The notes: a model not told the origin generated them from the sequence alone. 32,000 nucleotides of DNA from Nostoc sp. PCC 7120 = FACHB-418 (GCF_000009705.1 NC_003272.1:570001-602000); one strand, 5' to 3'. Numbered from the stretch's first letter, positions 1-22,110 are shown. A program made the numbers and translations.

Positions 1-3000
1 TCACCCTTGGGCGACCATGCTACACCCAAGATTGCATCATCATGACCTTGCCAGGTTTTGAGTAGTTTACCGTCCCGATTCCAAAGCTTGATGTTTTTGT
101 CAGCACCTACGGAAGCGAGAGTTTGACCATCAGGTGTCCAAGCTATGCCCAAAACTGCATCATTATGACCTGATAAAGTGTTGAGTAATTTCCCTTCTCG
201 ACTCCATAGTTTTACCGTCTTGTCGCTACTCCCAGAAGCAATCAGGGAACCATCGGGGCTAAAACTAGCATTATTTACTACATCCCCATGCCCTTGTAGA
301 GTAGTCACTAATTGACCAACTCGGTTCCATAGTTTGACTGTTTTGTCTTGGCTAGCGGACGCAATTAACAAGGCATCAGGGCTGAAGTTGACGCTATTGA
401 CTACATTGGTATGTTTAGACAAGGTGTTAATTAAGCTGCCATCACTACGCCAGAGATTGATAGTATTATCGGCGCTGGCGGAAGCAATCAGGGAACCATC
501 GGGGCTGAAGACCGCACTGTTTACTCCTGCGGTATGCCCCTCTAAGCGGTTGTATTCCCTCACTCCCACAACGGCTTGATAGAGTGCTGTCTGTACCTGT
601 TCTCTGGTGTAAGGGTCTACCCAAATAGCCCGTTGCAGTTTTCTGGCGGCTTTGACACCTTCTTTCACCGCATCAAGCCCTTTTTGGGAAGCAAACAGGG
701 CTTCACTGGAGACGCTGAGGGTTTTAATTTCGCTGTCTACTGCCGTAATAATAGAAACACTTAACCCCAGAATGGCGAGACATGAGGCAGTCAGGGCAAT
801 TTTCAGTGAACGATTCAGCTTGGCTTCACTTAGCCTTTGTTGTTTCTGGCTTTCGGCTAGTTGGGCGGTTAATTCCTTTTCTTTCAGTTCCCCACGTAAT
901 TGTTCAATTTCTAGTTGAGTTAGTTCCTCTCGCTTGCGTAATTCCCGCAATTCCGTGACTAAATCTAAACCCTGTTGGGGATGAGTATCTGTGAGTTTAG
1001 ATTGCTTTTTTTGGCTGAGTTCGCTTTTGAGGCGGGCAATTTCACTTTGACTTTGTTGGACTTTACGGCGTAATTGGTCAAGTTGTGCTTGTAAGCTGGA
1101 TTCCTGTTGTTGGAGATAACGAATTAAATCGACTAAATAATCATGAATTAGTTGATAACGTTCGGGAATATCAGGAAACAACACAACTAAGCCAGAATTA
1201 ACTAAAATATCTAAGACCAAATCTAATTTTTCAGGGTCTTCTAACTCTGCCAATTCAGTAGCTAATTCGGCACGGGTTTTAAAAGGTCGTTTGTTGCTTT
1301 CATCTGTTAACAAATATAAAACAAGTAAAGCTGCACGCTCATTTTCAGGGCCACACTCTTTGATTAGTTCTTTGATATATCTTTCTATGAGTTTGTTTGG
1401 TCGATATTGCTGATATTGTTTTAAGGTATTAATGCGCTCATCTTGGATTTGTGCGCCAACCACCTGCAATTCAATGGGGCGGACTTCTCCTAGTTCGGTT
1501 GATAAATCTTCCACCACCGCATCAATTAAAGCTGGTTCCAAATTGACTTGAGAACGTGCTGTTAATTTTTGAATTATGACTTTGGCATATTCTGGCGAAA
1601 AATTATTTAATTGATAACGAATTTGTTTATCGAGAATATTATTATTAATCGCTTCCAGGTAGGAAAGATGTTTAAATTCTAATAAGCGATGTAAATAATC
1701 TTCTCTAATGGAAAGAATGATTTTGACAAAGGATATATTCAGACATTGACTAAGAAATTGATCAAATTCTTTTTTCTGTTGACGATCGCTATAACCAAAG
1801 AAGAATTCTTCAAACTGGTCGAAAATCAGCACCGTGATCAGGTGGTTGTTGGCATTTTGGCGTAATTGTCCTAATATATCAGCGATCGCCATCGGTCGAG
1901 CATAGCCTATATCCATCGGCGGTGTCGGTGTTGATAAAATCTCCGGCGCAATGCTGACATCTCCGGAAATATGAGTCACAGCCTCAGTTAAAGCCTTCCC
2001 TAATTCCCGCACCCAATCGGTGTATACTTGCAATACTACAGGCATGGCAATTTGATCACCGATCGCCCGATTTTGTAACGCTGGGACTAAACCAGCCGTC
2101 ACAGTGGAACTCTTCCCCACCCCTGAGGGACCGTGAATCACAATCAATTTTTGGTCAGCCCGGCTAATTCTGCCAATTAAGTTATTAATATCCTGTTCTC
2201 GACCGGAAGCGGCGATTTCTAAAGCAACGCTACTGCTTCCAGAAGGTGACATCAAAGCTGGGTTGGTTGCTTGTCTTTGGGGTTGTAGTCTTCCCGCACC
2301 AATAAAAGCCCGAAAGCCATATTGCTGTTCTACAGAACGCCGTTTTTGACGGATGCGGTAGGCTTCCAGATATCTACCTGCTTCAAAATAGAGCGATCGC
2401 AATGTCCGCAACATTCTAATATAACGATGGGCATCATATTGATGGGCGCTATTTTCTAAAGCGGCTGGTAATTCTTTGGCGGCTTTATCTAAATATTCCT
2501 GTGCAACTAACTGTTCACCTAAGTTTTGTTGGGCTTTGGCTAAAACTAAATAATATATTTGTGCTAATAGTAAGGGAAATAGGCAATGATGGCGGTCACT
2601 ATCGTTATGGTTTTGTGCCTCAGTTAATTTTAATAGTGATACGTGTGCCAAAATACTCGCCTGTACCCAGCGCGACTGCTGTAACGCCACCTGCGCCAGA
2701 AAACCATAATCACAAGCCAGTTGAATTTGACTACCGTAGGTATGATGCAACTCCAGTGCTTTCTCTGCAACGATTTGCAGTTCATCCCATGCTTGGAGAT
2801 GTTCTAAAACTTCTGCCAATTGACCAATAAATTCTGATGCAATATCTGGTCTTCCCGCTACCTGCAAAATCTCCAAACATTCTTGAAAATAGAATTTTGC
2901 TGTTTCCCAATGACGACGATTATCTAGCTGATTCTGCTCCGCTAGACGGCAATAACATAGTCCTATATATAATTGCAAAACCCCCTGTCTGAGAATTGGG

Positions 3001-3848
3001 GAAGATAAAGGAGTAGGGCGAACAGGAAAAGATATACCCCGTTCCCCAGTCCCCAATCCCGGTTCCCCAATCCCCAATCGTTGCCAAATTTGCAGACTTT
3101 GTTGAAAATGATTTAAGGCATGATGAATGCGATCGCTGACATAATCATCTAAGCCAAACACAAATTTTAAACTGGCGTTTAATTCTGGCTCTAAGGTGAT
3201 ACCGCGCTCATGCAGTTCCGCAATCGCGTAGTGCAGTTCATTACTATGTTCCCAGACCTGCTCTAAGGTAGAGTAATCATCACCGAATTGAGGCTGCTGG
3301 TGTTGTCCTATATCCTTGGGTAATACTCTGGCAAATAAAGAGTCGGTTTCCTGTCGGAGAAATTGCAACAACTCTGGTGTTGTCATCTCAAACCGAATTG
3401 GTGTCGCCGCCCAACTGGCAAAATCCGGTGCTAAACGGATGACTTTTTGTAAAACTTCTTCATTCACCCAAAATATCATCGGAAATGAATGACGTTTGGG
3501 AAACTCATCTCGGATATGATTAATGGCTCTGAGTAAATCGTCAATTTCTTCGACTGATTCTAAACCCAAAACCATCAAGGCTGATGGCTGTTGCTGTTGG
3601 GGGAGTGAATTTAAATGGAGGGTTGTATAAAGACTTCTGGTATTAGGAGGTAAGACAACTTTTTGAATGGGATTCTCAACAGATATTTCATCCAGTCGTT
3701 GCAGTATCTTCTCTTGCAAGACTCGATAATTACAGTAAACCAACGCAACAGAAAAACTACCATGAGAAAGAGCGATCGCTCTCCATAAACTTGTAAAAGC
3801 CCGCTCATTCGCTACTTTGATATCTACTGGTGGGTGTCCTTCAACCAT
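1..3848 (-). CDS. Large multidomain STAND protein, C-terminus beyond window: degenerate P-loop-like N-domain, TPR-like helical region, nSTAND1-type P-loop NTPase, coiled coil, one TM helix, WD40 repeats
   Basis: Hand translation of the minus strand gives one continuous open frame from the ATG at 3848-3846 to position 1. It is absent from the ORF track because it has no stop in the window. Walker A is GPSGVGKSS (2106-2132), followed by AGLVPAL. The Walker B-like motif is LITVLIFDQFEEFF. A heptad-rich stretch reads QAQLDQLRRKVQQSQSEIARLK...ELRKREELTQLEIEQLRGELKEKE. The hydrophobic segment is SLKIALTASCLAILGLSVSIITAV (about 741-812). At least 5 WD40 units follow (GHxxxVxxxxFSPDGxxIASxSxDKTVKLW) between about 560 and 1. 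The start codon is less certain; a TTG at 3860 is an alternative. Confidence 0.85.
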   Translation of the reverse strand, partial: MVEGHPPVDIKVANERAFTSLWRAIALSHGSFSVALVYCNYRVLQEKILQRLDEISVENPIQKVVLPPNTRSLYTTLHLNSLPQQQQPSALMVLGLESVEEIDDLLRAINHIRDEFPKRHSFPMIFWVNEEVLQKVIRLAPDFASWAATPIRFEMTTPELLQFLRQETDSLFARVLPKDIGQHQQPQFGDDYSTLEQVWEHSNELHYAIAELHERGITLEPELNASLKFVFGLDDYVSDRIHHALNHFQQSLQIWQRLGIGEPGLGTGERGISFPVRPTPLSSPILRQGVLQLYIGLCYCRLAEQNQLDNRRHWETAKFYFQECLEILQVAGRPDIASEFIGQLAEVLEHLQAWDELQIVAEKALELHHTYGSQIQLACDYGFLAQVALQQSRWVQASILAHVSLLKLTEAQNHNDSDRHHCLFPLLLAQIYYLVLAKAQQNLGEQLVAQEYLDKAAKELPAALENSAHQYDAHRYIRMLRTLRSLYFEAGRYLEAYRIRQKRRSVEQQYGFRAFIGAGRLQPQRQATNPALMSPSGSSSVALEIAASGREQDINNLIGRISRADQKLIVIHGPSGVGKSSTVTAGLVPALQNRAIGDQIAMPVVLQVYTDWVRELGKALTEAVTHISGDVSIAPEILSTPTPPMDIGYARPMAIADILGQLRQNANNHLITVLIFDQFEEFFFGYSDRQQKKEFDQFLSQCLNISFVKIILSIREDYLHRLLEFKHLSYLEAINNNILDKQIRYQLNNFSPEYAKVIIQKLTARSQVNLEPALIDAVVEDLSTELGEVRPIELQVVGAQIQDERINTLKQYQQYRPNKLIERYIKELIKECGPENERAALLVLYLLTDESNKRPFKTRAELATELAELEDPEKLDLVLDILVNSGLVVLFPDIPERYQLIHDYLVDLIRYLQQQESSLQAQLDQLRRKVQQSQSEIARLKSELSQKKQSKLTDTHPQQGLDLVTELRELRKREELTQLEIEQLRGELKEKELTAQLAESQKQQRLSEAKLNRSLKIALTASCLAILGLSVSIITAVDSEIKTLSVSSEALFASQKGLDAVKEGVKAARKLQRAIWVDPYTREQVQTALYQAVVGVREYNRLEGHTAGVNSAVFSPDGSLIASASADNTINLWRSDGSLINTLSKHTNVVNSVNFSPDALLIASASQDKTVKLWNRVGQLVTTLQGHGDVVNNASFSPDGSLIASGSSDKTVKLWSREGKLLNTLSGHNDAVLGIAWTPDGQTLASVGADKNIKLWNRDGKLLKTWQGHDDAILGVAWSPKG
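3036..3077. repeat. Six tandem STRR1-like heptamers (CCCCAGT/CCCCAAT family) lying in frame inside the giant CDS
   Basis: Plus strand reads ACCCCGT TCCCCAG TCCCCAA TCCCGGT TCCCCAA TCCCCAA. This is 42 nt, or 14 codons, translated on the minus strand as LGIGEPGLGTGERG. Confidence 0.85.
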
Positions 3849-5155
3849 AATTTGAATTTGTGTGTCTCCGCTATAACTGGGTTGACAGCAAACCAAGCTC
3901 CTTGATGGTCGCGGTATTCAAAAACAAACAGACTCCGCAATAATGTATGGTATTCAATATCACCTCTCACCCTCTGCTGCTGCACCACCTGAAAAATTAA
4001 CTCCCATTCGTGGGGGTCAATGGCGTTAGCACGGTAGTCTCGTTGTCTTTGAATCACCAATTCGACACATTCCCTCCCAAAAGGTGGGTCTTGTTCACGC
4101 AGACAGTCAAACAGCAATCCTAATAAATCCCGTACATGACCACCACTGATCAAGCACAAGCGATCTAATGTTTCTAAATTATCAAACACATCTGTAATTA
4201 AGCCTAACCGATCGCTAGGATTAATGTCAGGGAAGCTCCTGGCGAGGATCATTTGTCGCATCAGTGTTAATCCCTGGGTGAAAATTTCCCCAGACCGCAG
4301 GCGTACAGGTATCATGGGCAAAACTTTTGGTGCTACCCCTCCCCCCAAGCGTTGTTGCAGTTCCGCACTGTAGTTGGAAAAAGTTAAAGCCAAAGGAATG
4401 GTGTAAACTACATGACAATTAAGCTTGCGTAACTGCTCGCCTCTTTCAATAAACAAGTATTCTGGTAGCGATCGCCCGGATGGTAAAGGTCGAATTGCTA
4501 CTCGGTCTAAATTATCAACAATAACCACCAATCCCTTTTTGCCTAAGGCTTTAAGGTCTTTATTACCACGTTCAAGTAATTCTAAATTAATCGATTGCAG
4601 TATATTTTGAGTGCGCGGTTCTAAGTAATCTCGCAATCTCCGCCGTAACTGGGGACTTTCTTTAGTCTTGGCGGTAATCTTGGCAATACCCACAGATAAC
4701 TCACCTTCCACCCCTAGTTCAATCGGTGTTTGCAGAAAATCTACAACTTCCCCAAACAACTTAGTAAAGTAGTTGGGTTTGATGTGAATTTTTATGGCTT
4801 CTAAACTCTCGCTCACTTGACCTGCGATCGCTAGTAAAATATCAGTCACATCCACATCCGCCATTTCTAAGACGTGGGTAGACTCAAAATAAACTACATG
4901 AAATTGCTGTTCTTCTAACTCGGCTTTGAGTCGCAACAACTCTGTGGATTTTCCACAACCAAGATGCCCCGTAAATAACTGACAAGTCGGAGCATCCGGT
5001 GATATTCTAGTAATTGTACGTAGTAAAGCCTCAATGATTTTACCACCCCGTACCGCCGCAAAATCGATATAATAGCGGCGATCGCTAGCATTACCCATCA
5101 TCAAAGGTCTGCTAGGATTGCAAGCTTGATAAAATCTTTCTAAATCTAGGGGCAT
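3824..5155 (-). CDS. Stand-alone P-loop NTPase (STAND/ORC-Cdc6-like ATPase with helical C-terminal half), function unknown
   Basis: 443-aa ORF in the track. Walker A is FTGHLGCGKSTELLRL and Walker B is GLVVIVDNLDRV. The C-terminal half is helical. The TAG stop at 3824-3826 lies inside the first codons of the downstream giant gene (25-nt overlap). Confidence 0.8.
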   Translation of the reverse strand: MPLDLERFYQACNPSRPLMMGNASDRRYYIDFAAVRGGKIIEALLRTITRISPDAPTCQLFTGHLGCGKSTELLRLKAELEEQQFHVVYFESTHVLEMADVDVTDILLAIAGQVSESLEAIKIHIKPNYFTKLFGEVVDFLQTPIELGVEGELSVGIAKITAKTKESPQLRRRLRDYLEPRTQNILQSINLELLERGNKDLKALGKKGLVVIVDNLDRVAIRPLPSGRSLPEYLFIERGEQLRKLNCHVVYTIPLALTFSNYSAELQQRLGGGVAPKVLPMIPVRLRSGEIFTQGLTLMRQMILARSFPDINPSDRLGLITDVFDNLETLDRLCLISGGHVRDLLGLLFDCLREQDPPFGRECVELVIQRQRDYRANAIDPHEWELIFQVVQQQRVRGDIEYHTLLRSLFVFEYRDHQGAWFAVNPVIAETHKFKLWLKDTHQ

Positions 5156-10726: not shown

Positions 10727-11005
10727 ATGAATCCAGAAAACTCGGAAACTTACATAAATCACCCTACTTGGGGTTTGCTATATCGGATCTGCATGGTTGA
10801 TGAAAGCCAGGATTTGTTCACAACACTTTACGCTCAACGCTTATTCTTTCTAGTAGGGAATGACATTAAAGCTATAAAGTTTCAACCGATAGGACGCACT
10901 GAGGCGAGAATGTTGTTAGAAAATCGCTTGCGTAATTTGCGTCGCAATGGTCAATCACAGGAGTACGATCAGCTTCAGAGTGTTTTCCAACGCACCTTCC
11001 AATGA
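10727..11005 (+). CDS. pipX: PII-interacting protein PipX
   Basis: 92 aa. The stretch YINHPTWGLLYRICMVD...LFTTLYAQRLFFLV...FQPIGRTEARMLLENRLRNLRR matches my recollection of Synechococcus PipX. Confidence 0.93.
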   Translation: MNPENSETYINHPTWGLLYRICMVDESQDLFTTLYAQRLFFLVGNDIKAIKFQPIGRTEARMLLENRLRNLRRNGQSQEYDQLQSVFQRTFQ

Positions 11006-11670
11006 TTAGTTCGATCAACGAACGTATTACTCAAATTCGGGCTTCCCTACCGCCTTCAGTCAGGCTAATTGCTGTCACAAAGCAAATGCCGACTGAAGTT
11101 ATTCGTGCTGCTTATGCTGCTGGTATCCGCGATTTTGGCGAAAATCGTATCCAAGAAGCTGCTAGTAAAAAAGCCCAGTTACATGACTTACCGGATATTA
11201 CTTGGCACTTTATTGGACATTTGCAAGCGAACAAAGCCAAAAAAGCTCTAGAACAATTTCAATGGATTCACTCTGTAGATAATTTGAAACTAGCACAGCG
11301 TTTAGACCAACTAGCGCAACAGCTAGGAGTCAATCCTCAAGTTTGTCTACAGGTGAAAATCCTCCCAGATCCGAATAAGTCTGGTTGGACTGTACCAGAA
11401 CTGCTGACAGATTTACCTGCACTCAACCACTGTAAAACTTTACAAATTCAGGGTTTAATGACAATTCCGCCTTTTGGCTTAAATGATGCGGAAATTTTTT
11501 ATGTATTTAATACTACTTACAAATTAGCCAAAGATATTGCTGAACAAAACTGGGATCATATTCACATGGGTCAGTTGTCGATGGGTATGTCAGGGGACTA
11601 CCAACTTGCAGTACAAGCTGGGGCGACGATGGTAAGATTGGGGACTATATTATTTGGGCAGCGTACTTAA
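11002..11670 (+). CDS. pipY: YggS-family PLP-binding protein (PLP homeostasis; PipY)
   Basis: Has an AVTK PLP-lysine motif, FGENRIQE and HFIGHLQANK. Its ATGA start overlaps the pipX stop. Confidence 0.9.
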   Translation: MISSINERITQIRASLPPSVRLIAVTKQMPTEVIRAAYAAGIRDFGENRIQEAASKKAQLHDLPDITWHFIGHLQANKAKKALEQFQWIHSVDNLKLAQRLDQLAQQLGVNPQVCLQVKILPDPNKSGWTVPELLTDLPALNHCKTLQIQGLMTIPPFGLNDAEIFYVFNTTYKLAKDIAEQNWDHIHMGQLSMGMSGDYQLAVQAGATMVRLGTILFGQRT

Positions 11671-12042
11671 GCAATATTACTCGGATTTTTTTCTAGTATC
11701 AAATAGCCATGGGTATGGAATACGGACAATTATTTTCCATAATAGTGCAATAAGTTACAAGATTTCCACTGTAAATAAAAGTAAATAATCACGAGAACGC
11801 ACTAAAAATAACTTTAGTCAACTTTCTTTCGGATAATTGTTGGGATATAATCTTGACTCAATTATTGTATCTAGGTTAATGTACAGGCGTTCCCAATAGC
11901 GTTAGTCCATTGCCAATAGCAGTAGTAGATGCTACAAATAGCGATAAAATTAATAGGCTATTTGCCCTTAGTAGCTAGTTAAACAGCTACATTAACGATT
12001 AACCGGATAATTAGAGGCAATTTGCAGAAGGAGTGCAACTAA

Positions 12043-12639
12043 ATGAACAATATATTTTCTAAACTGCGAGACTTTGTTGGTCTCAACGAGCAGGTAGAAT
12101 ACGAGTACTACGAAGAAGAGGCAGATACAGATAACTACCAAAACCTGTATCAACAAGAAAATCCCCAACCAGCACCAGCAGAGGCTGCCCCAAACAATCG
12201 ACGTTGGCGCGAACCCATGACTACAATGGGTGATGACGTAGCAGCAGGAACAAAATCGGCGATGGGGAATGTGATTGGTATGCCAGGAGCAATTAACGGA
12301 ATTTCTGAAGTATTGGTGCTTGAACCTCGTACATTTGAAGAAATGCCCCAGGCAATTCAAGCATTGCGTGAACGTAAATCAGTAGTGCTGAACTTGACCA
12401 TCATGGACCCAGATCAAGCACAAAGAGCTGTTGATTTTGTTGCAGGTGGAACCTACGCGCTAGATGGACATCAAGAACGGATTGGCGAAAGTATCTTTTT
12501 GTTTACCCCCAGCTGTGTGCAAGTCAGCACCCAAGGTGGAGTTATTCATGAAGTACCCCAACCCCCAGCACGTCCAGCACGACCAGCTTCAACTAATCCG
12601 CCAGCTTGGGGCAACGAAACCAACCGGATGGCACAATAA
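12043..12639 (+). CDS. sepF: Cell-division protein SepF
   Basis: N-terminal [14 protein letters not shown] amphipathic helix and a low-complexity linker. The conserved core is [29 protein letters not shown]...[31 protein letters not shown]. Confidence 0.9.
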
Positions 12640-12688
12640 AGTTAAATTAGTCATTAGTCCATAGTCAAGAGTCCAAATGAGAAAATTT

Positions 12689-12744
12689 TTGACTATTGAC
12701 TATTGATTAACGAATAACGACTAACGACTAACGACTAATGACTA
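12689..12744. repeat. Eight tandem heptamers (TTGACTA / ACGACTA family); the last unit, ATGACTA, supplies the proC start codon
   Basis: TTGACTA TTGACTA TTGATTA ACGAATA ACGACTA ACGACTA ACGACTA ATGACTA. The proC ATG is at 12738. Confidence 0.9.
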
Positions 12745-13550
12745 TAAAATTTGGTTTAATTGGTGGCGGGGTAATGGGAGAAGCGCTCTTATCCCGCCTT
12801 ATTGCGCGGGGAATTTATCAACCATCAGAAGTCATAGTCAGCGAACCGCAAACAGCGCGACAAGCTTTTTTACAACAAAAATATCATGTGGGTGTGACCA
12901 CAGATAACAGTTTGGTATTCACACAAGCTCAAGACGTTGTATTCTTGGCGGTGAAACCACAAGTGTTTAGTGCGATCGCTCAAGAATTAGCAGATACAGT
13001 ATTCACAGACCATTCCCCCCTTGTCGTCTCCATTCTTGCAGGGGTGTCTCTAAGCCAGCTAGAAGCGGCGTTTCCCCAATCACCAGTCATTAGAGCCATG
13101 CCCAATACCCCAGCCACTGTAGGCTCAGGGATGACCGCTATCTGCTCTGGTGCCTACACTTATGCCCAACACCAAAAATTGGCGCAACAAATTTTTTCCG
13201 CAGTAGGGGAAGTAGTCGAAGTTTCCGAAAGTTTGATGGATGCAGTCACCGGGCTTTCTGGCAGTGGCCCGGCTTACGTAGCTTTATTGGTAGAAGCCCT
13301 CGCTGATGGGGGAGTGGCATCGGGTTTACCCAGAGGAATAGCCAATCAACTAGCATTACAAACTGTGCTAGGAACAGCCCAACTATTACACGAAAGTAAA
13401 CTCCACCCAGCCGAACTCAAAGACCGAGTTACTAGCCCTGGCGGTACTACCATCGCGGGGATTGCCCAACTAGAAAAAGCGGGATTCCGTTCAGCCTTAA
13501 TCGAAGCCGTCAAAGCAGCTACATGGCGATCGCAAGAACTAGGAAAATAG
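12738..13550 (+). CDS. proC: Pyrroline-5-carboxylate reductase
   Basis: Has IGGGVMGEAL Rossmann, AVKPQ, RAMPNTPA and VTSPGGTT motifs. Confidence 0.95.
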   Translation: MTIKFGLIGGGVMGEALLSRLIARGIYQPSEVIVSEPQTARQAFLQQKYHVGVTTDNSLVFTQAQDVVFLAVKPQVFSAIAQELADTVFTDHSPLVVSILAGVSLSQLEAAFPQSPVIRAMPNTPATVGSGMTAICSGAYTYAQHQKLAQQIFSAVGEVVEVSESLMDAVTGLSGSGPAYVALLVEALADGGVASGLPRGIANQLALQTVLGTAQLLHESKLHPAELKDRVTSPGGTTIAGIAQLEKAGFRSALIEAVKAATWRSQELGK

Positions 13551-13661: not shown

Positions 13662-16343
13662 GTGAATTATCCCGCGCCGTCTCCCGAACTAGACTTAGGG
13701 TTGATATTTCCCTTTGATCTGGATCAGTTTCAAAAAGATGCGATCGCGTCCCTTAACGCGGGACGCTCTGTTGTCGTGTGTGCGCCCACAGGTTCGGGCA
13801 AAACTTTAGTAGGAGAATACGCCATTTATCGTGCTTTAACACGGGGGAAACGAGTGTTTTACACCACTCCCTTAAAGGCGTTATCTAATCAAAAATTACG
13901 TGATTTTCGTGAGAAATTTGGGTTTGAGCAAGTTGGGCTGTTAACTGGTGATGCTTCCATCAACAGAGACGCGCCAATTTTGGTGATGACTACCGAGATT
14001 TTTCGGAATATGCTCTACGGTACACCAATCGGGCAAGTCGGCATCTCTCTTGTAGATGTGGAAGCGGTGGTACTAGACGAGTGCCACTACATGAACGATC
14101 GCCAAAGGGGTACAGTCTGGGAAGAGTCAATCATTTATTGTCCCCGTGGAGTACAGTTAGTAGCTTTATCTGCCACTGTCGCCAACAGTGATCAACTTAC
14201 CGACTGGCTAAGTCGTGTCCACGGCCCCACTGATCTGATTTACTCTGATTTTCGCCCTGTACCCTTAGAGTTTCACTACTGTAATCCCAAGGGACTGTTT
14301 CCCCTGTTGAATGATAGCAAAACTAAAATTAATCCTCGTTTAGCCAATAGAGGTAAAAAACGGCAAGGGGATAGAGGGAAAAATGGCAGACCAGAAGCCC
14401 CCAGCCTTATCTACACTTTGAACCACCTCCAACAAAGAGATATGCTGCCGGCGATTTATTTCATCTTCAGCCGTCGGGGATGCGATAAAGCCGTGGCAGA
14501 AGTGGGGGATTTATGGCTAGTTAATAATGAAGAGTCCCAGATACTACGACGGCAAATTGATGATTTTTTAGCCCGTAACCCCGAAGCCGGTCGTTCTGGA
14601 CAAATAGCCCCCCTTTATCGAGGGGTTGCTGCTCACCACGCCGGGATTTTACCAGCCTGGAAAGTTTTGGTAGAAGAACTATTTCAACAAGGACTGATTA
14701 AAGTCGTATTTGCCACAGAAACCTTGGCAGCAGGAATTAATATGCCTGCCCGGACAACGGTTATTTCCACCCTATCCAAACGCACCGACACCGGACACCG
14801 CCTCTTAAACGCATCGGAATTCTTACAAATGGCGGGTAGGGCGGGCCGTCGGGGGATGGATAAGCAAGGTCATGTGGTGACGGTGCAGACTCCTTTTGAA
14901 GGCTCAAAAGAAGCGGCATATTTAGCCACATCCAAACCAGACCCACTAGTCAGTCAGTTTACCCCTAGCTATGGCATGGTTTTGAACTTACTGCAAACCC
15001 ACACCATAGATGAAGCCAAGGAACTGATCGAACGTAGTTTTGGGCAGTACATGGCGACTTTGCATTTAAGACCAGATTACGAAGAAATTGCGGCTCTAGA
15101 AGGCGAATTAGCCAAACTACAAGAGCAAATCAACGCCGTTGACGAAAATGATATCCTGATTTATGAAAAATTACGGCAACGGTTGAAAGTAGAGCGTCAG
15201 CTACTAAAGACTCTACAAGAGCAAGCCCAGGAGGAGCGACAAGAACAAATTAAAATGCTCTTGGATTTTGCTGTTTTGGGAACGCTGTTGAGTTTGAAGG
15301 GTCAAAACTTTAAAGTTTCCACACCCATAACCGCAGTTTTAGTTGGCAAAACTTCCGGTTCTACTCAATCTGCTTGCTTGGTCTGCTTGGGACAAGATAA
15401 CCGATGGTATGTTGCTGCTACTGCGGATGTAGTTGATTTATATGCCGAACTTCCGCGAGTAGATGTACCGCCAGATATCTTACCACCACCAGAATTGATG
15501 CTCAAACCAGGGCAATCCAGTCGTGGTGCAAAAGAAACAATGGCGATCGCACAAAGTATCCCCGATCCTCAACAATCTCTGCATCTGTCCCCAGAGGTAG
15601 CCGAACAACTCAGCCGCACCGCCGCTATCCAAGCTCAATTAGAAGCTAATCCCCTGCATCAATCGGGTAATGTATCCATGGTCTTCAAAGCTCGCGCCCG
15701 CTATGTCGAACTGGAAGCCGAACTCGAAGAGATACAGGCGCAAGTAGAACAGCAATCTCAGCGCTATTGGGAAGAATTTCTCAATTTAATTACCATCTTG
15801 CAGCAATTCGATTGCTTAGATAACTTAGTTCCTACTGCACTCGGTCAAATTGCTGCCGCTATTCGCGGGGAAAATGAACTGTGGTTAGGTCTAGCTTTAG
15901 CTAGTGGAGAGTTAAATAACTTAGACCCCCACCATCTAGCAGCAACTATCGCCGCTTTAGTTACAGAAACTCCCCGTCCAGATAGCAGAGTTAACTTCAA
16001 CCTTTCCCCAGAAATAGACGACGCTTGGTCGAGATTACAAAAGACCCGTCGGGCTGTCTTAAAGGTGCAGTACCGACATGGTGTAGCCTTACCTGTAGGC
16101 TTGGAAAATCGCTATATTGGCTTGATTGCCCTTGTGGAACAGTGGGCTTTAGGGATCGAATGGGTTGAACTTTGCCAAAACACCACCTTAGATGAAGGTG
16201 ATGTAGTGCGAATTTTACGCCGTTCTTTAGACTTATTATCCCAGATACCCCACGTTCCTAATTTACCCGATGTTTTACAGCGTAATGCCTACCGTGCCAT
16301 GCAACTGATTGATCGATTCCCGGTGAATGAGGTTGTGGAGTAG
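13662..16343 (+). CDS. Ski2/HelY-like DEAD/DEAH-box (superfamily 2) RNA helicase with C-terminal DSHCT-like region
   Basis: Has CAPTGSGKT, DECH, SAT and QMAGRAGRRG motifs. GTG start. 893 aa. Confidence 0.9.
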   Translation: MNYPAPSPELDLGLIFPFDLDQFQKDAIASLNAGRSVVVCAPTGSGKTLVGEYAIYRALTRGKRVFYTTPLKALSNQKLRDFREKFGFEQVGLLTGDASINRDAPILVMTTEIFRNMLYGTPIGQVGISLVDVEAVVLDECHYMNDRQRGTVWEESIIYCPRGVQLVALSATVANSDQLTDWLSRVHGPTDLIYSDFRPVPLEFHYCNPKGLFPLLNDSKTKINPRLANRGKKRQGDRGKNGRPEAPSLIYTLNHLQQRDMLPAIYFIFSRRGCDKAVAEVGDLWLVNNEESQILRRQIDDFLARNPEAGRSGQIAPLYRGVAAHHAGILPAWKVLVEELFQQGLIKVVFATETLAAGINMPARTTVISTLSKRTDTGHRLLNASEFLQMAGRAGRRGMDKQGHVVTVQTPFEGSKEAAYLATSKPDPLVSQFTPSYGMVLNLLQTHTIDEAKELIERSFGQYMATLHLRPDYEEIAALEGELAKLQEQINAVDENDILIYEKLRQRLKVERQLLKTLQEQAQEERQEQIKMLLDFAVLGTLLSLKGQNFKVSTPITAVLVGKTSGSTQSACLVCLGQDNRWYVAATADVVDLYAELPRVDVPPDILPPPELMLKPGQSSRGAKETMAIAQSIPDPQQSLHLSPEVAEQLSRTAAIQAQLEANPLHQSGNVSMVFKARARYVELEAELEEIQAQVEQQSQRYWEEFLNLITILQQFDCLDNLVPTALGQIAAAIRGENELWLGLALASGELNNLDPHHLAATIAALVTETPRPDSRVNFNLSPEIDDAWSRLQKTRRAVLKVQYRHGVALPVGLENRYIGLIALVEQWALGIEWVELCQNTTLDEGDVVRILRRSLDLLSQIPHVPNLPDVLQRNAYRAMQLIDRFPVNEVVE

Positions 16344-16448: not shown

Positions 16449-17126
16449 ATGGTGAACCCATCTATTCAATCCATTGCAGCTGCTACCTTAGCTTTACTAG
16501 TAGGGTACTCAGTCAACCCAGTAGCTGCACTACCAAATAACAGTTATCAAAACCTGACCGTTGCTCAAGCGCCACAGTTAACAGATACCTTAATTGTCCC
16601 AGGGGAAAGGGTCGGCCCAGTGACACGCAAAACTACTCGGAGAGATTTAGCCAAAACTTTCGGTGCATCCCGTTTGGTTGATAAAACTATTGCCGGTGCT
16701 GAAGGTATAGGTAGTTTTGCCGCTACCCAAGTAAATCTCAGTCGTGGGCGTTCATTTTTGGTAGTCTGGAGTGATAAGACTCGGACGAAACCCTCAGATG
16801 TGCGCGAATTAGGTAGTGCATGGAAAACTCGTGAAGGTATTGGAGTCGGAACTCCTTGGAGCGAGTTACGCAATAAATTAGGTAATTTTAAACTATTTGG
16901 GCTGGGTTGGGACTACGGCGGCACTATTTTGTTAGAAAGTAGCAAGTTATCACGCTACCAAGGAAAATTGATTGTACGGGTAGAAGCTGCTACCAATGCT
17001 GGTGAAAAATATCCCAATGATTATCGTGCAGTTTCAGGCGATGGTACTTTTTCTTCTGGCGATCGCCACTGGAAACCTTTAGGAATGAAGGTATCACAGG
17101 TAATTGTGATTCTCAATCCCAATTAA
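16449..17126 (+). CDS. Secreted hypothetical protein
   Basis: 225-aa ORF with a signal-peptide-like N-terminus, SIAAATLALLVGYSVNPVAA. I recognise no family. Confidence 0.6.
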   Translation: MVNPSIQSIAAATLALLVGYSVNPVAALPNNSYQNLTVAQAPQLTDTLIVPGERVGPVTRKTTRRDLAKTFGASRLVDKTIAGAEGIGSFAATQVNLSRGRSFLVVWSDKTRTKPSDVRELGSAWKTREGIGVGTPWSELRNKLGNFKLFGLGWDYGGTILLESSKLSRYQGKLIVRVEAATNAGEKYPNDYRAVSGDGTFSSGDRHWKPLGMKVSQVIVILNPN

Positions 17127-17220
17127 TAAAACTGAATCAATACCTTAATCACTCGCTCAGTGATGCAATTCATCCCATTTTCCCGCACCTGATGGAAAAA
17201 TGGGCGATCGCTCTAACTGC

Positions 17221-17478
17221 TTACGGGTTTTTTTGATTATCTGACTTAAATCTACCCGCAAGAAAATCTCGTTTACCTAAGTGCTTGGTTTGACGCTTAT
17301 TAACTCGCTCTCGCCACATCCGAAAACTTGATTCTTTCATTTCGCGTTTCATGAGGGCAATTACCTGTTTCTCCAACAGCCCAAATTGAGCTTTAATTGC
17401 TTCAAAAGGAGTTCTGTCTTCCCAAGCCATTTCAATAATGCGATCTATAGTTTCGGTATCTAGTTCTGGTAGTTTCAT
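17221..17478 (-). CDS. DUF2805 / TIGR03643-family small protein
   Basis: IDRIIEMAWEDRTPFEAIKAQFGL...FRMWRERV matches my recollection of the family signature. Confidence 0.75.
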   Translation of the reverse strand: MKLPELDTETIDRIIEMAWEDRTPFEAIKAQFGLLEKQVIALMKREMKESSFRMWRERVNKRQTKHLGKRDFLAGRFKSDNQKNP

Positions 17479-17505
17479 AATATTGAGAATGGGAAAAAGC
17501 CATAT

Positions 17506-18186
17506 TTAAGCACTCTGTTCTGTTTCTGTTACTAGTTTCTGCCCAATTTTTGGTTCTGTACCTGCGAGCAAACGCTCAATATTACTCCGGTGACGCAAAA
17601 TAACATACAAGCCACCAGCAATACCAAATAAAATGTAGGGCAAGGGTTGCTGTAAAAACACCATCACAATAGAGACAGCGATCGCCCCCATGATGGAACT
17701 GAGTGATACAATCCTTGATATTGCTACCACAACAGCAAAGACACCAAAGGTAGCCAAACCTACCTGCCAATTCATGGCTAATAAAATCCCTAAGCTGGTA
17801 GCGACAGATTTACCACCTGTAAAGCCTAAGAAAATTGATTTACTATGTCCTAAGATGGCGGCGATACCTGCTAGAGTCACTAACCAAGGTTGCCAAAGTT
17901 CAATATTTACTGTTGTAGGAATCAAATTTTGATTACTGGCAAAGGTGAACAAATAGTAAACTAGAGCGATCGCCAATACGCCTTTTAAGCAGTCAAGTCC
18001 TAAAACAAATGCTCCAGGCCCTTTACCCAAGGTTCTCAAAACATTAGTTGCTCCCGTGGAACCCGAACCTACCTCACGGATATCAATACCCTTCAATTGT
18101 TTGACAGCAATATACCCCGTAGGAAAAGAACCCAACAGGTAAGCCACTAACACTACTGCACCGCATAAACTCAACCAAAAGCCCAT
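17506..18186 (-). CDS. plsY: Glycerol-3-phosphate acyltransferase PlsY
   Basis: YLLGSFPTGYI, GSGSTGATNVLR and HSKSIFLGFTGGK motifs; polytopic. Confidence 0.93.
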   Translation of the reverse strand: MGFWLSLCGAVVLVAYLLGSFPTGYIAVKQLKGIDIREVGSGSTGATNVLRTLGKGPGAFVLGLDCLKGVLAIALVYYLFTFASNQNLIPTTVNIELWQPWLVTLAGIAAILGHSKSIFLGFTGGKSVATSLGILLAMNWQVGLATFGVFAVVVAISRIVSLSSIMGAIAVSIVMVFLQQPLPYILFGIAGGLYVILRHRSNIERLLAGTEPKIGQKLVTETEQSA

Positions 18187-18266: not shown

Positions 18267-20450
18267 CTAGTTATTGCTGACACCAACGGAAATTTCTGAT
18301 TCTTCATCTCTTGTCCGTTCTTCCCCAGGTACTGAATCGGAGAATTCAGCCGAGGGTGGTAAAGAAACAGTAATATCAGCCCCGTTGATAATAACTCCCA
18401 CTAGTCCTAGTTCTGCTTCCACTAGTTGATCAATAGCTTCAGCCATCATGCTGTCCTGGGTGTAGTTAACTCGTGATACGAGTACTATGCCATCACTGTA
18501 GGGTTGAATTAACAAGGGATCGTTAGATACACTTAATGGGCTAGTATCTAAAATAACTAAGTCATAACGTTCTCTCACATCTTCCATCAGCCGCCGCATT
18601 TCGCTGGATTCTAAAATAGCAGCAGATTGACGCACAGGCCCAGGACTGGGTATGATGTATAAATTTTCGACTTCAGGGACTAAGCGGATACATTCGCTTA
18701 AGCTGCCATAATAACGCAGGGGTTCAAGTGTGGCATCCTCGTCAGAAGAAACCCTCAAAGAGGAACAACGTGAAGGCGATCTCAAATCTGTTTCGATGAT
18801 CAAGGTTCTTTTGCCAGCGCGGGCGGAGGCTATACCCAGGTTATAGGCGCTGGTTGTTTTACCTTCCTGGCTACTAGTACTAGTCACCAAAACCACTTTT
18901 AAGTTTCTGCCACCAATCCGCCTTAAGTTACTGCGTAATTTCTCGTAAAACTCTAAATACAAAGAATCGAGGGACAGGATCACAGGTAGGGCTTCTGGCG
19001 GTAAGTCATCCACTGGCAATACAGGTATTTCTCCCAACATTGCCACATCCCGTTGTTTGAGGCTATCTCTGATAGCTTCTCTGGTGCGGAGTGTCCCTTC
19101 TAAGGAACCTAGTAAGAAAATCACCCCACCACCAACTATCAATCCTAAGAAACCACCTACACCCAAGGTTAAAGGGACACTTTTGGCTGGTTTGGCATCA
19201 GCCCCCACCACAGGAACCTGAGCAATGCTAAAGCTGCTCACCGTCTCTGCTTCTGCTGTTTGAGCATCAGTTAGCTTGGCTTGCATTTGATCATAAACTG
19301 CTTTCTTCAGTCCTACTGCTTGTTCCAAGCGCGATCGCTCTAATTGTTTATTGGGTATTTGGGAATATTCTTGCCGCAATCGAATTTCATCTCGTATTTG
19401 CTGGGCTAATTGTTGTTGTAGGGTTTCTTTTTGCGTTTGCAAAGCTACCATCTGGTTAGCTAGCTGCTGTCGGGCTGGATCTAGACTACTTTGGGTGCGG
19501 ATACCACTAATATTTGTTGCTAAGGGTGCTGCTGTACCACCACCGCCAATTACTTCCGCCGCCCTTTGTTGGAGTAATTCTTCAGATGCTTGTTTTTGAC
19601 GCTGCAACTGAATCATATTCGGGTGTTCTGGGCGTAAATCTTTACGCAGTAAAGCGATTTGTGATTCTGTCTGATAAATTTGCGATCGCAAGTTGGCGAT
19701 AATTGGGTCGGCACTCAACGCAGAAGAAACATAAGATTGACCGACATCTAAACCCAACTTATCTTGCAGACTGAAAATCTGCGCCTCAATTCCCGTAATA
19801 GTTTGGCGAATCACCCGTTGCTGATTTTGGCTACCAGTAACAGCACCAAGTAAACTACCATTTTCTGCGGCTAATATAGCAGGTCGTTCTATGCGATCGT
19901 ACTGTTCCAGTCTTTTTTCAGCTGCTTGTAGCTCAGACCGTGCTTGTGGTATGCGTTCATTAATTTTGCCAATAATAGCTTTTAGTCGCCCAGTATTAAT
20001 ATCACTACTGAGCTTGACCATTGCCTGCATCAGCTCCAGCAATACTTCCTGCGCCCGCTTGGGATCACTATCTTTATATGCCAGAGAAATAACATTAGAT
20101 TCTAATTCTCCGGTGCGTGAGTTTCTTCTAGGTGGTGTAATTGCTACGCTGGAAGCAATCCTTCTTGACGGAATTTTCACCTTTGCCGACACATTATCAA
20201 TTACTTGATCTGATAGCAGCACTTCCTGGTTTAATTCCTGACCTTGTTGCTGAATTTCGCTACCTGTCGTAGAAAATGATACCGGGGGTCGAGAATATGT
20301 CAATGTGCCGCTTGCTGTATACGTAGGCGCTGGTTCTGGTTGGATAGCCACCACTGTTGACCCCGCTACAACTAAAGCAAAGCTGGCTAATCCAATCCAT
20401 TTATATTTTTCAAAAGCAATAATATAGCTCTTAACAATTGGTGGGGTCAT
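18267..20450 (-). CDS. GumC/Wzc-like polysaccharide co-polymerase with C-terminal BY-kinase-type P-loop domain
   Basis: N-terminal TM, long coiled-coil periplasmic region and a second TM (GGFLGLIVGGGVIFLLG). Walker A is TSSQEGKTT, Walker A' is LIIETDLR and Walker B is YDLVILDTSP. Confidence 0.85.
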   Translation of the reverse strand: MTPPIVKSYIIAFEKYKWIGLASFALVVAGSTVVAIQPEPAPTYTASGTLTYSRPPVSFSTTGSEIQQQGQELNQEVLLSDQVIDNVSAKVKIPSRRIASSVAITPPRRNSRTGELESNVISLAYKDSDPKRAQEVLLELMQAMVKLSSDINTGRLKAIIGKINERIPQARSELQAAEKRLEQYDRIERPAILAAENGSLLGAVTGSQNQQRVIRQTITGIEAQIFSLQDKLGLDVGQSYVSSALSADPIIANLRSQIYQTESQIALLRKDLRPEHPNMIQLQRQKQASEELLQQRAAEVIGGGGTAAPLATNISGIRTQSSLDPARQQLANQMVALQTQKETLQQQLAQQIRDEIRLRQEYSQIPNKQLERSRLEQAVGLKKAVYDQMQAKLTDAQTAEAETVSSFSIAQVPVVGADAKPAKSVPLTLGVGGFLGLIVGGGVIFLLGSLEGTLRTREAIRDSLKQRDVAMLGEIPVLPVDDLPPEALPVILSLDSLYLEFYEKLRSNLRRIGGRNLKVVLVTSTSSQEGKTTSAYNLGIASARAGKRTLIIETDLRSPSRCSSLRVSSDEDATLEPLRYYGSLSECIRLVPEVENLYIIPSPGPVRQSAAILESSEMRRLMEDVRERYDLVILDTSPLSVSNDPLLIQPYSDGIVLVSRVNYTQDSMMAEAIDQLVEAELGLVGVIINGADITVSLPPSAEFSDSVPGEERTRDEESEISVGVSNN

Positions 20451-20725
20451 AAAAGAGACATATAAAATTAATGAAAATTTATGCGGTCAATCAACAAGAT
20501 ATTGTCACATTTAGTAGCTATTATTCATCATTTATGATTCATAAGTCACCTGAATTACTTAATTCTTTATTTTCTGCCATCAGTATCAATGCGATCGCGT
20601 GCAAAAAACACTCTACTTTTGTGGAATTGAGAAATTTAGTTACTTAGTTCATGTATCCAGTACAAAGATGAAATTTCTGGTTCCCCAATTTCCCCAGCAA
20701 TTGATTATTTTTTAACATTCTCTTA

Positions 20726-22042
20726 CTACCTACTAAAGGTATCAAAAAAGTTGAGAAATGAGCGGACATTAAAGAAGGGTTGAGTAATAGTACTGAGGAA
20801 ATTTGTAATCCTGCCAACCAAGTTTCGTCCAACTACAATAACATCATTATCTTGTAGTGGCACATTCTGAGACACATCGCCTTCTAAAGCCTTTTTCCCA
20901 TCTAGTCTTTGTGTAACTGCCTTGCCACGTTCCGGGTCAAAGCGGACTAAAGCGATATCCCTAACGTTAGCAGTATCAAGATTAATTCCACCTAGTGCAT
21001 CTATAAAAGTACTGCCATTAGGCAAAGCTTGAGTTACAAGACCACCAGCAGCATAGTTCAATACGCGGACTCTAATTTGTGGTGTTGCCAAGGTGGAACG
21101 GGCTACTAAATTGCGGTCATAGCCATCGTCTGTGCCGATTTCACGGCGGGGAATAATTAGCGTATCGCCATCTTGCAAGCGTAAACTAGGTATCGAGCCA
21201 TCATTTTGCAATGCGGCATATAAATCTATGGTTTGCGAAATTGCCGAACCATCTACTAATCGCCGACGTACTTGCACTTGGCGCAAATCGGCGGCAATGG
21301 TGGAACCACCTGCCACCTGCAAAGCATCGCCAATTCGGGGTAGTGCAGCATTTAGGTTATAAATACCTGGTCTGAAAACTTCCCCACTAATACTAACTTG
21401 TACTGGTCGTGGGTTAGCTAGGGTGACGACAAAAAGCGGATCGTTGAGAATCTGGCTCAAACTCAAGCGGATTTTTTCTTGCGCTTCTTCCAAACTCAAG
21501 CCTTGTACAGATATAATTCCTACTTGGGGAACGACAATATTGCCTTCTGCATTCACTTGGGCTTGAAAACTTGCATCTGGACGCTGTGAAGACAAAGACA
21601 AAACTACTACGGGATTAATCACAAAACGATTCAGCAAAGAGCGAATCTTTTCTTGTGCTTCTAGCAAGGTTAAACCTTGTAGAGGAACAGTCTCCAGTAG
21701 CGGTACTATGATATTGCCTTCTGGATTAATTGCTGCTTGAAAACTCAAATCTGGAAAGCGTTGGACAATGACGCTAACTGCATCTCCCGGCCCCAAGCGG
21801 TAAGCACCAGGTGGGCGTTGAAATGTGACGTTGATTACATCACCTGGCCCCAATAAGTAACGGTTAAATTGGGGAGAAGTTTCGTTATTGGGATTCTGGG
21901 GTGCGCCTTCCGTCTCTGGTGGAGGCGTAGGAAATATTTGCCCAGAAGGAGGTAAAGTTTGAGCAATTACAGGCTGAAAGGGCGTAGCTAAGAAAACCCC
22001 TACATGTACACTTACAAGTGATAAAGCGCAGAATGCACGCAT
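20726..22042 (-). CDS. Polysaccharide export protein (Wza-like; duplicated Poly_export-type units plus SLBB-like repeats)
   Basis: I prefer the ATG at 22042, which gives a signal-like N-terminus MRAFCALSLVSVHVGVFLA. Repeated LGPGD and PxxGxIxVxGLTxxEAQEKI motifs. Confidence 0.85.
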   Translation of the reverse strand: MRAFCALSLVSVHVGVFLATPFQPVIAQTLPPSGQIFPTPPPETEGAPQNPNNETSPQFNRYLLGPGDVINVTFQRPPGAYRLGPGDAVSVIVQRFPDLSFQAAINPEGNIIVPLLETVPLQGLTLLEAQEKIRSLLNRFVINPVVVLSLSSQRPDASFQAQVNAEGNIVVPQVGIISVQGLSLEEAQEKIRLSLSQILNDPLFVVTLANPRPVQVSISGEVFRPGIYNLNAALPRIGDALQVAGGSTIAADLRQVQVRRRLVDGSAISQTIDLYAALQNDGSIPSLRLQDGDTLIIPRREIGTDDGYDRNLVARSTLATPQIRVRVLNYAAGGLVTQALPNGSTFIDALGGINLDTANVRDIALVRFDPERGKAVTQRLDGKKALEGDVSQNVPLQDNDVIVVGRNLVGRITNFLSTITQPFFNVRSFLNFFDTFSR

Positions 22043-22110
22043 ATAATCATGGAGAACTATTAACATCGTTGAATTCAGAATATACCGCAAGGAGTAGCTG
22101 CCATTATGAA

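Follow-up and report, generated by a model that had tools for sequence, protein, structure and literature searches.

Do two overlapping genes at the left end of a stretch of Nostoc DNA encode one molecular switch, or two ATPases that happen to lie side by side? The question concerns genes A and B in 32,000 nucleotides of Nostoc sp. PCC 7120 = FACHB-418 (GCF_000009705.1, NC_003272.1:570001-602000), a stretch referred to below, at its full length, as the window. Gene A encodes a compact P-loop ATPase, and gene B encodes a giant STAND NTPase with a C-terminal WD40 region. We lean towards the answer that the locus is a two-gene STAND/NLR-like nucleotide switch acting as one unit, through the mechanism proposed below. 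Innate immunity and programmed cell death share STAND/NLR proteins as their switch, from animals, plants and fungi to bacteria, and nearly every bacterial example characterised so far is one soluble chain that carries a fused effector. An earlier note, made from the sequence of the window alone, had interpreted the locus as a possible two-component NLR-like switch, and the present analysis supports that interpretation. The layout of the two genes is as follows.

3824-5155, minus strand: gene A, an open reading frame (ORF) of 443 codons for 443 residues that begins with ATG and ends with the stop TAG at 3826-3824 (ORF listing and direct reading)
1-3848, minus strand: the first 1282 codons of gene B, in a frame different from that of A, with the ATG at 3848-3846 and open to window position 3
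3824-3848, minus strand: the overlap of A and B, 25 nucleotides, set by the A stop at 3826-3824 and the B start at 3848-3846

Gene B runs past the left window edge, and the window holds only these first 1282 codons. The 25-nucleotide overlap on the minus strand, which the earlier note had pointed out, is confirmed, and co-transcription of A and B is likely. A promoter and terminator scan of the pair gave results at chance level and is uninformative. The guanine plus cytosine (GC) content of the pair, 0.43-0.44 against 0.42 for the window, is host-like and gives no compositional sign of horizontal transfer.

Conservation of the pairing carries much of the argument. A scan of one genome per species found relatives of A in at least 492 stretches, and the best 80 of these loci were analysed. 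All 80 are from Nostocales, with A 89-98% identical; the nearest genome among the matches listed is Nostoc parmelioides FACHB-3921 (locus L001), whose A is 98% identical. A B homologue begins within the last codons of A in 80 of the 80 loci. Where both ORFs are complete (69 loci), the overlap measures 25 nucleotides in 38 and 31 nucleotides in 31, and B ranges from 1701 to 1761 residues. The association extends to distant A-like genes with 35-63% identity, 11 of 11 of which are directly followed by an ORF that opens with the N-terminal domain of B (NTD). nSTAND1 follows the NTD in all 10 distant partners whose contig is long enough, the contig of L095 being short. These 11 genes come from Trichormus, Lyngbya, Planktothrix, Cyanothece sp. 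SIO1E1 (two), Cyanosarcina, Fischerella, two metagenome contigs and two plasmids. The plasmid copies belong to Acaryochloris marina and Nostoc sp. ATCC 53789, and Cyanothece sp. SIO1E1 carries a tandem A-B-A-B arrangement (L091, 474-13242). Among relatives the overlap is 26 nucleotides in L094 and 4 nucleotides in Acaryochloris pREB2. The co-occurrence of A and B, on which the earlier note had made its reading depend, therefore holds in close and distant loci alike, and the pairing is far beyond chance.

These data bear directly on the simplest alternative, namely that A and B are mere neighbours whose overlap results from compact gene packing. Such a reading is very improbable and already contradicted by the comparative data: adjacency persists in every close and distant locus though the flanks change, both genes are duplicated and carried to plasmids together, and natural fusions join A-like modules to NTD or nSTAND modules. 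The core of A, NTD and nSTAND1 is inherited, duplicated and mobilised as a two-gene unit across cyanobacteria.

What, then, is protein A? Three features locate its functional parts.

4943-4969, minus strand: Walker A motif of A, GHLGCGKST, residues 63-71
4502-4528, minus strand: Walker B motif of A, VVIVDNLDR, residues 210-218
3827-4018, minus strand: winged-helix-like C-terminal domain of A, residues about 380-443, with the wing motif WF..NP (model and conservation)

Sequence profiles place A only loosely. In Pfam, KAP_NTPase (PF07693) reaches 31.4 bits against a gathering cut-off of 20, matching profile positions 3-164 of 293, and the other matches fall below the Pfam cut-offs: ATPase_2 with 24 bits (33.2), nSTAND_NTPase5 with 19.3 (34), AAA_16 with 19.6 (32.6), and AAA_22 as well. 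NCBIfam holds no model matching A or B. A sequence-profile search of the PDB finds no match to A, the best being mS29 with an expectation value (E) of 0.4 over the P-loop only. As far as curated profiles go, A is assigned to no named STAND clade. With weak, generic matches in Pfam and none in NCBIfam or, by sequence, in the PDB, A does not correspond to a characterised housekeeping ATPase.

The family label that A often carries calls for comment. KAP NTPases are reportedly marked by transmembrane helices inserted in the P-loop domain, an account attributed to Aravind and colleagues in 2004. A has no hydrophobic segment (no 19-residue window reaches a mean hydropathy of 1.4), hence no KAP membrane insertion, and "KAP family" is therefore a name for A and not a classification. 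Public labels of A-type proteins vary among KAP family NTPase, AAA family ATPase and THEP1.

Structure prediction is more informative. An AlphaFold2 model, based on an alignment of 51 sequences with 58-93% identity, reaches a predicted local distance difference test (pLDDT) of 91.8 and a predicted template-modelling score of 0.91. It shows three domains: a P-loop domain of alpha/beta type carrying a long insertion of helices, a helical domain, and a winged helix at the C-terminus. This last region comprises helices 381-393 and 400-407 and strands 411-416 and 419-424. Foldseek matches in the PDB include Orc1/Cdc6, ORC, the archaeal ATPase_2 structures 2qen and 2fna, Apaf-1, CED-4, RdrA and mS29, with E from 6e-6 to 1e-3. 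The predicted fold makes A, with its winged helix, an AAA+ ATPase of Orc1/Cdc6/STAND type and not a generic P-loop protein. A may also be linked to the "Npun2340/2341" family of Leipe and colleagues (2004), a family mentioned in PMC8195603.

Conservation within the family is tight. The 51 sequences share about 100 invariant columns, which include G63, G66, C67, G68, K69, S70 and T71 of Walker A and V210, V211, I212, D214, N215, L216, D217 and R218 of Walker B. T252, R269 and an SGGHxR motif are likewise invariant, as are W421, F422, N425 and P426, the WF..NP residues of the wing. At 50% identity the family falls into 2510 clusters with E below 1e-3, 343 of them below 1e-30. Its named close members are all cyanobacterial, including the unicellular Acaryochloris, and several genomes have two or more copies, as Nostoc sp. 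UHCC 0702 does with P0062 and P0290. A look-up of the clusters for an orthologue from Anabaena PCC 7120 gave no such entry.

Protein B adds the sensor-like parts and two further modules of NTPase type. Its features within the window run from the N-terminus as follows.

3339-3848, minus strand: NTD of B, residues 1-170 (model, Foldseek and conservation)
2229-3281, minus strand: helical TPR-like region of B, residues about 190-540 (TPR_12 below cut-off; alignment)
2994-3077, minus strand: Pro/Ser/Gly-rich low-complexity insert in the helical region, residues about 258-285
1056-2204, minus strand: nSTAND1 module of B, residues 549-931 (Pfam PF20703)
2106-2132, minus strand: Walker A motif of B, GPSGVGKSS, residues 573-581
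1806-1832, minus strand: Walker B motif of B, VLIFDQFEE, residues 673-681
801-1046, minus strand: charged heptad-rich segment of B, a probable coiled coil, residues about 935-1016 (read from the translation)
738-800, minus strand: hydrophobic helix of B, IALTASCLAILGLSVSIITAV, residues 1017-1037, a probable transmembrane anchor with the N-terminal side in and the C-terminal side out
3-563, minus strand: first 4.5 or so of the 14 WD40 repeats of B, residues about 1096-1282 (Pfam WD40)

At full length, as seen in Nostoc parmelioides FACHB-3921 (L001), B has 1716 residues and 14 WD40 repeats, which follow a 41-residue period to about residue 1680 and are enough for two seven-bladed propellers. 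The Pfam profile of nSTAND1 (PF20703) scores 114.4 bits against a cut-off of 27.1 over residues 549-931, and that of WD40 scores 168 bits. With the profile, both Walker motifs and the C-terminal repeat region all present, B is by sequence an nSTAND1-clade STAND NTPase. The Walker motifs of both proteins stand as the earlier note had quoted them. Its description of B as an nSTAND1/TPR/WD40 protein holds for nSTAND1 and WD40; the TPR label is weak, TPR_12 giving 26 bits over the helical region, under its cut-off of 30.1. The insert in this region varies from 0 to about 70 residues among orthologues that are otherwise 72-96% identical, and is the only hypervariable spot of B. Public annotation misleads for some B-type proteins, which are entered as "ribosome assembly protein 4" or simply as "WD repeat-containing protein" (L098, 10559-16093; L097, 10308-15800).

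The transmembrane helix that the earlier note had placed in B corresponds to the hydrophobic helix at residues 1017-1037, whose mean Kyte-Doolittle value exceeds 2; the hydrophobic 21-mer stays at or above 2.0 in all 69 orthologues. Its flanks are asymmetric across the same orthologues: the N side has 5 K/R and a median net charge of +4, the C side 1 K/R and a charge of -2. By the positive-inside rule, the NTPase part of B would therefore be cytoplasmic and the C-terminal part outside, so that the WD40 part is probably outside the cytoplasm.

The NTD opens every B-type partner protein. Its model, built from collected NTD homologues, has a pLDDT of 89.8 and shows a five-stranded alpha/beta domain. 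The PDB matches found by Foldseek are all AAA+ folds: ORC4, the inactive AAA+-like domain of Sir3, Rad17, the clamp-loader delta subunit, Hda and TnsC. Between strand 1 and helix 1, in the P-loop position, lie three residues, CNY, so the NTD is predicted to be unable to bind nucleotide canonically. R113 is its sole invariant residue and R138 is nearly invariant; by our own placement in the model, R138 would fall after strand four and before strand five, the position of AAA+ arginine fingers. With this P-loop-less AAA+-like domain at the start of B, the pair would comprise three NTPase-type modules. No Pfam family covers the NTD in any of its 48 members, and the analysis thereby gives a name and a predicted fold to a widespread unannotated cyanobacterial domain. 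Two other identities were tried and rejected: a degenerate copy of A (hhalign probability 0.1) and EACC1, which is a single-transmembrane domain of an actinobacterial caspase system.

Stand-alone forms of the NTD also exist. They span about 165 residues, are 39-57% identical to the NTD of the window and occur in Lyngbya, Microcoleus, Coleofasciculaceae and others (L087 7001-7498; L088 6438-6941; L089 2704-3207; L090 7001-7498). They belong to no Pfam family and adjoin a DUF423 gene in a conserved position. A Mg-protoporphyrin-methyltransferase-like gene lies nearby in 2 of 3 contexts, and an SLH/GHL10 gene in 2 of 3.

Distant B-type proteins indicate which parts are constant. The hydrophobic helix is kept in 5 of 7 and absent from L091b and L092, and a Trichormus paralogue of 1100 residues lacks the WD40 region. 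Given these losses, the constant core appears to be A, the NTD-helical region and nSTAND1, with a variable C-terminal sensor. Of the two B copies in the Cyanothece sp. SIO1E1 tandem, only the first has the hydrophobic helix.

Fusions among relatives of A, sought in proteins representing clusters at 50% identity, join the same modules in other orders. In P0154 an NTD (profile E 3e-65) stands ahead of an A-like ATPase, and in P0201 an NTD comes after an A-like fragment. In P0138 and P0172 an A-like module precedes an nSTAND1- or nSTAND6-like module, and in P0123 an AAA_16/nSTAND1 module with TPR precedes an A-like module. Other relatives attach domains of effector or adaptor type to A-like proteins: TIR_2 in P0141 (116 bits), CHAT with TRADD-N in P0176, an alpha/beta hydrolase in P0194, and the vWA-like SAV_2336_NTERM in P0122 (NCBIfam NF041121, 518 bits). 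This repertoire is that of STAND conflict systems as described in the cited parts of the literature (Kaur, Burroughs, Iyer, Aravind; PMC7159879, PMC8195603). This pattern points to the A-type module as the attachment arm for outputs. The closest non-orthologous relatives of A, at 48-69% identity, are P0122, P0127, P0134 and P0139, all with an N-terminal SAV_2336_NTERM domain of about 555 residues that has a vWA-like DxSxS motif. P0121 and P0204 have an unnamed helical N-terminal domain of about 250 residues. A metagenome scan for the context of P0141 returned only unfused pairs (L094) and short contigs.

How does the copy in Nostocales evolve? Conservation was measured in 42 Nostoc genomes that share the tatC flank, as median amino-acid identity to the L035 reference.

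A: median identity 94%
TatC: median identity 93%
nSTAND1 of B: median identity 90%
NTD: median identity 85.5%
Neighbouring SDR: median identity 85%
WD40 of B: median identity 83%
Helical region of B: median identity 74%, the least conserved part

Conservation of the Nostocales copy matches that of TatC, an unusual level for a defence gene. The WD40 repeats of B are stable in number and show no diversification signal, and the propeller varies no more than other parts of B. tatC lies upstream of the pair in 52 of the 80 loci. The slow evolution and housekeeping neighbours argue against a typical fast-evolving defence gene in the case of the Nostocales copy. A search of IMG/VR contigs found no relative, and an origin from phage or prophage was rejected on this ground. 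The plasmid-borne and tandem paralogues make the family as a whole look conflict-system-like, while core-level conservation gives the Nostocales orthologue group an "institutionalised", apparently fixed appearance.

The surroundings of the pair raise a second alternative, a non-immune, "institutionalised" housekeeping regulator of envelope, septum or division, in which the NTPases would drive assembly at the membrane. The genes adjoining the pair in the window are housekeeping genes. The flank there comprises an epimerase, an SRPBCC protein, der, cbiQ, yggS, sepF and proC, with murG beyond B. Conservation at core-gene level, a stable chromosomal position in Nostoc, and the membrane anchor and probably periplasmic propeller of B would all suit such a regulator. 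Several division or envelope genes lie near members of the family too: ftsQ and ftsZ divergent from the pair in Lyngbya and Planktothrix, murG directly downstream in L001, and yggS-sepF-proC 6-8 kb from A in the window. These neighbourhoods are lineage-specific, however: the window-type flank recurs in 1 of 80 loci (L001 only), and the Lyngbya and Planktothrix regions are broadly syntenic anyway. Multiple paralogues, plasmid copies and effector fusions would be unexpected for a housekeeping regulator, and the literature searched offers no link to such a role. We consider this explanation quite unlikely.

Some details of these contexts can be recorded here. The yggS (PLP-binding, Ala_racemase_N)-sepF-proC cluster occupies window positions 11002-13550, an ordinary cyanobacterial housekeeping and cell-division context. 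In Lyngbya aestuarii (L083/L084, 5418-7791) and Planktothrix rubescens (L085/L086, 5491-7757), the gene divergent from the pair encodes FtsQ with POTRA_1 and is accompanied by ftsZ; murG of L001 lies at 16522-17595. SepT/All2459/All2461, a septal protein with P-loop neighbours, was considered as a relation of the pair and set aside as an unrelated locus. A scan of the window's ten largest other ORFs found a single defence-type gene, a type I hsdM at 25610-27223 (N6_Mtase 366 bits, HsdM_N), about 20 kb from the pair, with further ORFs to about 31676. A Ski2-like DEAD/DSHCT helicase of 893 residues (13662-16343) and a Wzc-like tyrosine-kinase-type ATPase with a Wza-type polysaccharide export protein (18267-22090) are unrelated to the pair.

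For the two-gene nucleotide switch that we favour, the following mechanism is proposed. B would be the sensor-switch, a type II membrane protein whose single transmembrane helix would put the double WD40 propeller outside the cytoplasm, facing the periplasm or thylakoid lumen. Its nSTAND1 module, helical platform and degenerate, P-loop-less NTD would stay cytoplasmic. A, a sensor-less and effector-less ATPase of Orc1/Cdc6/Apaf-1 type, would dock on the NTD or co-oligomerise with it. The NTD and helical platform would recruit A into a hetero-oligomer in which two NTPase modules are active and a third is inactive, a mixed assembly comparable to ORC, clamp loaders, helper/sensor NLR pairs and the predicted nSTAND2 hetero-toroid. 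A ligand on the propellers would signal through the coiled coil to nSTAND1, and nucleotide-dependent assembly with A would lead to output. A would serve as the output-proximal arm, its nucleotide state and winged helix engaging an unlinked output. Because the pair behaves as fixed core genes, a conserved surveillance or cell-fate role is favoured over a rapidly adapting phage-specific receptor; possible cues for surveillance may be envelope or periplasmic damage, or invasion.

Several points weigh against this switch. Physical contact between A and B, on which it turns, is something that we infer. In several other paralogous pairs, an intergenic gap of 200-560 nucleotides takes the place of the overlap, so translational coupling is lineage-specific and not general. 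The Foldseek scores of the NTD are modest (E 2e-4 to 4e-2, template-modelling score about 0.5), and profile-profile comparison with hhalign finds no similarity between the NTD and the A family. Membrane insertion appears not to be essential to the B family, since 2 of 7 distant members lack the helix. The stand-alone NTD lies far from any NTPase gene, which suggests that the domain may function without A. Pfam recognises no effector domain in A or B, as the earlier note had stated, and judged by sequence, the Nostocales pair does not itself encode its output. Finally, the pair on the Acaryochloris conjugative plasmid adjoins HicAB, RelE/ParE, two integrases and a NACHT gene, and such paralogue surroundings of toxin-antitoxin genes, integrases and NACHT fit classical defence better than core signalling.

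The plasmid neighbourhoods lead to the third alternative, a classical Avs-like anti-phage STAND system acting by abortive infection, in which B would sense a phage protein and the pair would kill or arrest the cell. Killing could come from oligomerisation-driven membrane damage through the coiled coil and helix, or from a recruited, unlinked effector. Besides the Acaryochloris surroundings, the Nostoc plasmid pair adjoins TnpB and DUF499; the TIR, CHAT/TRADD-N and hydrolase fusions in relatives of A, the several paralogous pairs per genome and the one tandem duplication all point the same way. nSTAND1 itself was defined in predicted conflict systems, according to the cited part of PMC8195603. 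The window copy fits this picture poorly: it is conserved like TatC across the 42 Nostoc genomes, its WD40 region is stable in number and sequence, its neighbours are housekeeping genes, and the nearest defence-type gene of the window is about 20 kb off. The lack of a meaningful match in PADLOC and of a relative in IMG/VR contigs also counts against it, and an extracytoplasmic WD40 region, if B has one, would be blind to intracellular phage proteins. On balance, abortive infection is an unlikely role for this copy.

A more specific form of the two-gene switch can be put forward tentatively, and it remains doubtful as a whole. The pair could be a core-genome, membrane-spanning "paired NLR" of multicellular cyanobacteria, whose extracytoplasmic double WD40 propeller would read a periplasmic or septal cue such as a breached envelope, part of a phage or a signal from a neighbouring cell. 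The cue might then trigger a hetero-oligomer of A with the NTD and nSTAND1, perhaps with R113 or R138 supplied in trans to the active site of A, and so decide cell fate along the filament.

If the switch reading is true, the locus would offer a tractable bacterial analogue of helper/sensor NLR pairs, an instance of NLR-type signalling across a membrane, and a test of whether conflict systems become "institutionalised" in multicellular bacteria. In the more specific form, the pair would be an NLR that spans a bacterial membrane and has its own helper ATPase, an architecture undescribed among PADLOC matches or in the literature searched. The module is clearly delimited, widespread in cyanobacteria and found in genetically tractable Nostocales, and its description sets right the misleading public names "KAP family NTPase" and "ribosome assembly protein 4", among others.

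How does the pair compare with systems already described? PADLOC-DB v2.0.0 gives no meaningful match of A or B to a named system model. A matches PDC-S20 (E 5e-5, 21 bits, P-loop region only) and mad8 (E 3e-3), and the matches of B lie in repeat regions only, with TPR models and with HEAT-ARM_XIII (E 3.1e-13, 46 bits, residues 1088-1185 against a 1972-position profile). These weak and generic matches agree with the earlier note, which had placed the pair outside named defence catalogues. Neither the pair nor the NTD is described in the literature searched, and the pair, with its three-module core and probable transmembrane sensor, is not named there or in PADLOC or NCBIfam.

Among AAA+ machines, Orc1/Cdc6-ORC and the clamp loaders provide the best structural matches for A and the NTD and likewise mix active and inactive subunits. 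The resemblance to Orc1/Cdc6-ORC does not extend to a sequence-level relation, the PDB profile search reaching only mS29, and nothing points to DNA replication; in its context and fusions the family resembles STAND conflict proteins. A shares with the KAP family a PF07693 score above the gathering cut-off, but its NTPase domain lacks the transmembrane insertion and its model is a soluble three-domain protein. Avs proteins have a STAND-type ATPase core as well, yet each is a single chain with an N-terminal effector (nuclease, protease, TIR and others) and a TPR-like sensor, whereas the pair has two genes, no effector domain and a WD40 sensor behind a probable membrane helix. RdrA of RADAR, a structural match of A, also has a STAND-type ATPase core but works with the RdrB deaminase.

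Eukaryotic NLR-type systems offer closer parallels in logic. Apaf-1, like B, has an NTPase switch followed by two WD40 propellers, and the model of A matches both Apaf-1 and CED-4. Apaf-1 is nevertheless one soluble chain with an N-terminal CARD. In the pair, a probable coiled coil and membrane helix separate the sensor from the NTPase, no death-fold or caspase is present, and a second ATPase gene is obligatory. Paired plant NLRs (RGA4/RGA5, RRS1/RPS4) and NAIP/NLRC4 combine two NLR-type NTPases as sensor and helper or executor. Plant pairs are arranged head-to-head, and both partners are full NLRs with leucine-rich repeats. A and B, by contrast, are co-directional and overlapping, and A has no sensor, which makes the likeness an analogy of logic and not a family homology.

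Within bacteria, the single-protein nSTAND1 conflict proteins resemble B in having nSTAND1 followed by a repeat or sensor region (PMC8195603; Dore et al. 2024, PMC10907252). The described proteins have effectors or effector-associated domains at the N-terminus and sensors of the lectin/FGE or another type, and some are targets of diversity-generating retroelements. An upstream partner ATPase and a P-loop-less NTD go unmentioned in the cited parts of these accounts. The closest described concept, by analogy and within the cited section, is the nSTAND2 two-gene system, in which an active STAND module and an inactive one, with variable effectors, are predicted to assemble into a hetero-toroid (Kaur, Iyer, Burroughs and Aravind 2021, eLife; PMC8195603, section 15). 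The mS29 structural match of A, and its P-loop-only mS29 sequence match, hint at the nSTAND2 clade, which lies near S29/Dap3, RNA12 and the CR-ATPases. As described in that section, nSTAND2 is a two-gene operon with STAND-type modules in both products, one of them with eroded nucleotide motifs, an architecture to which that of the pair is analogous, but its inactive module bears GT4 or HEPN effectors and its operon is mobile. The pair instead combines an active A, a predicted inactive NTD that is no more than an AAA+-like alpha/beta domain, and an active nSTAND1, with the NTD and nSTAND1 on one polypeptide that continues, without an effector, into a probable coiled coil, a probable transmembrane helix and WD40 repeats, and its Nostocales copy is fixed in the chromosome.

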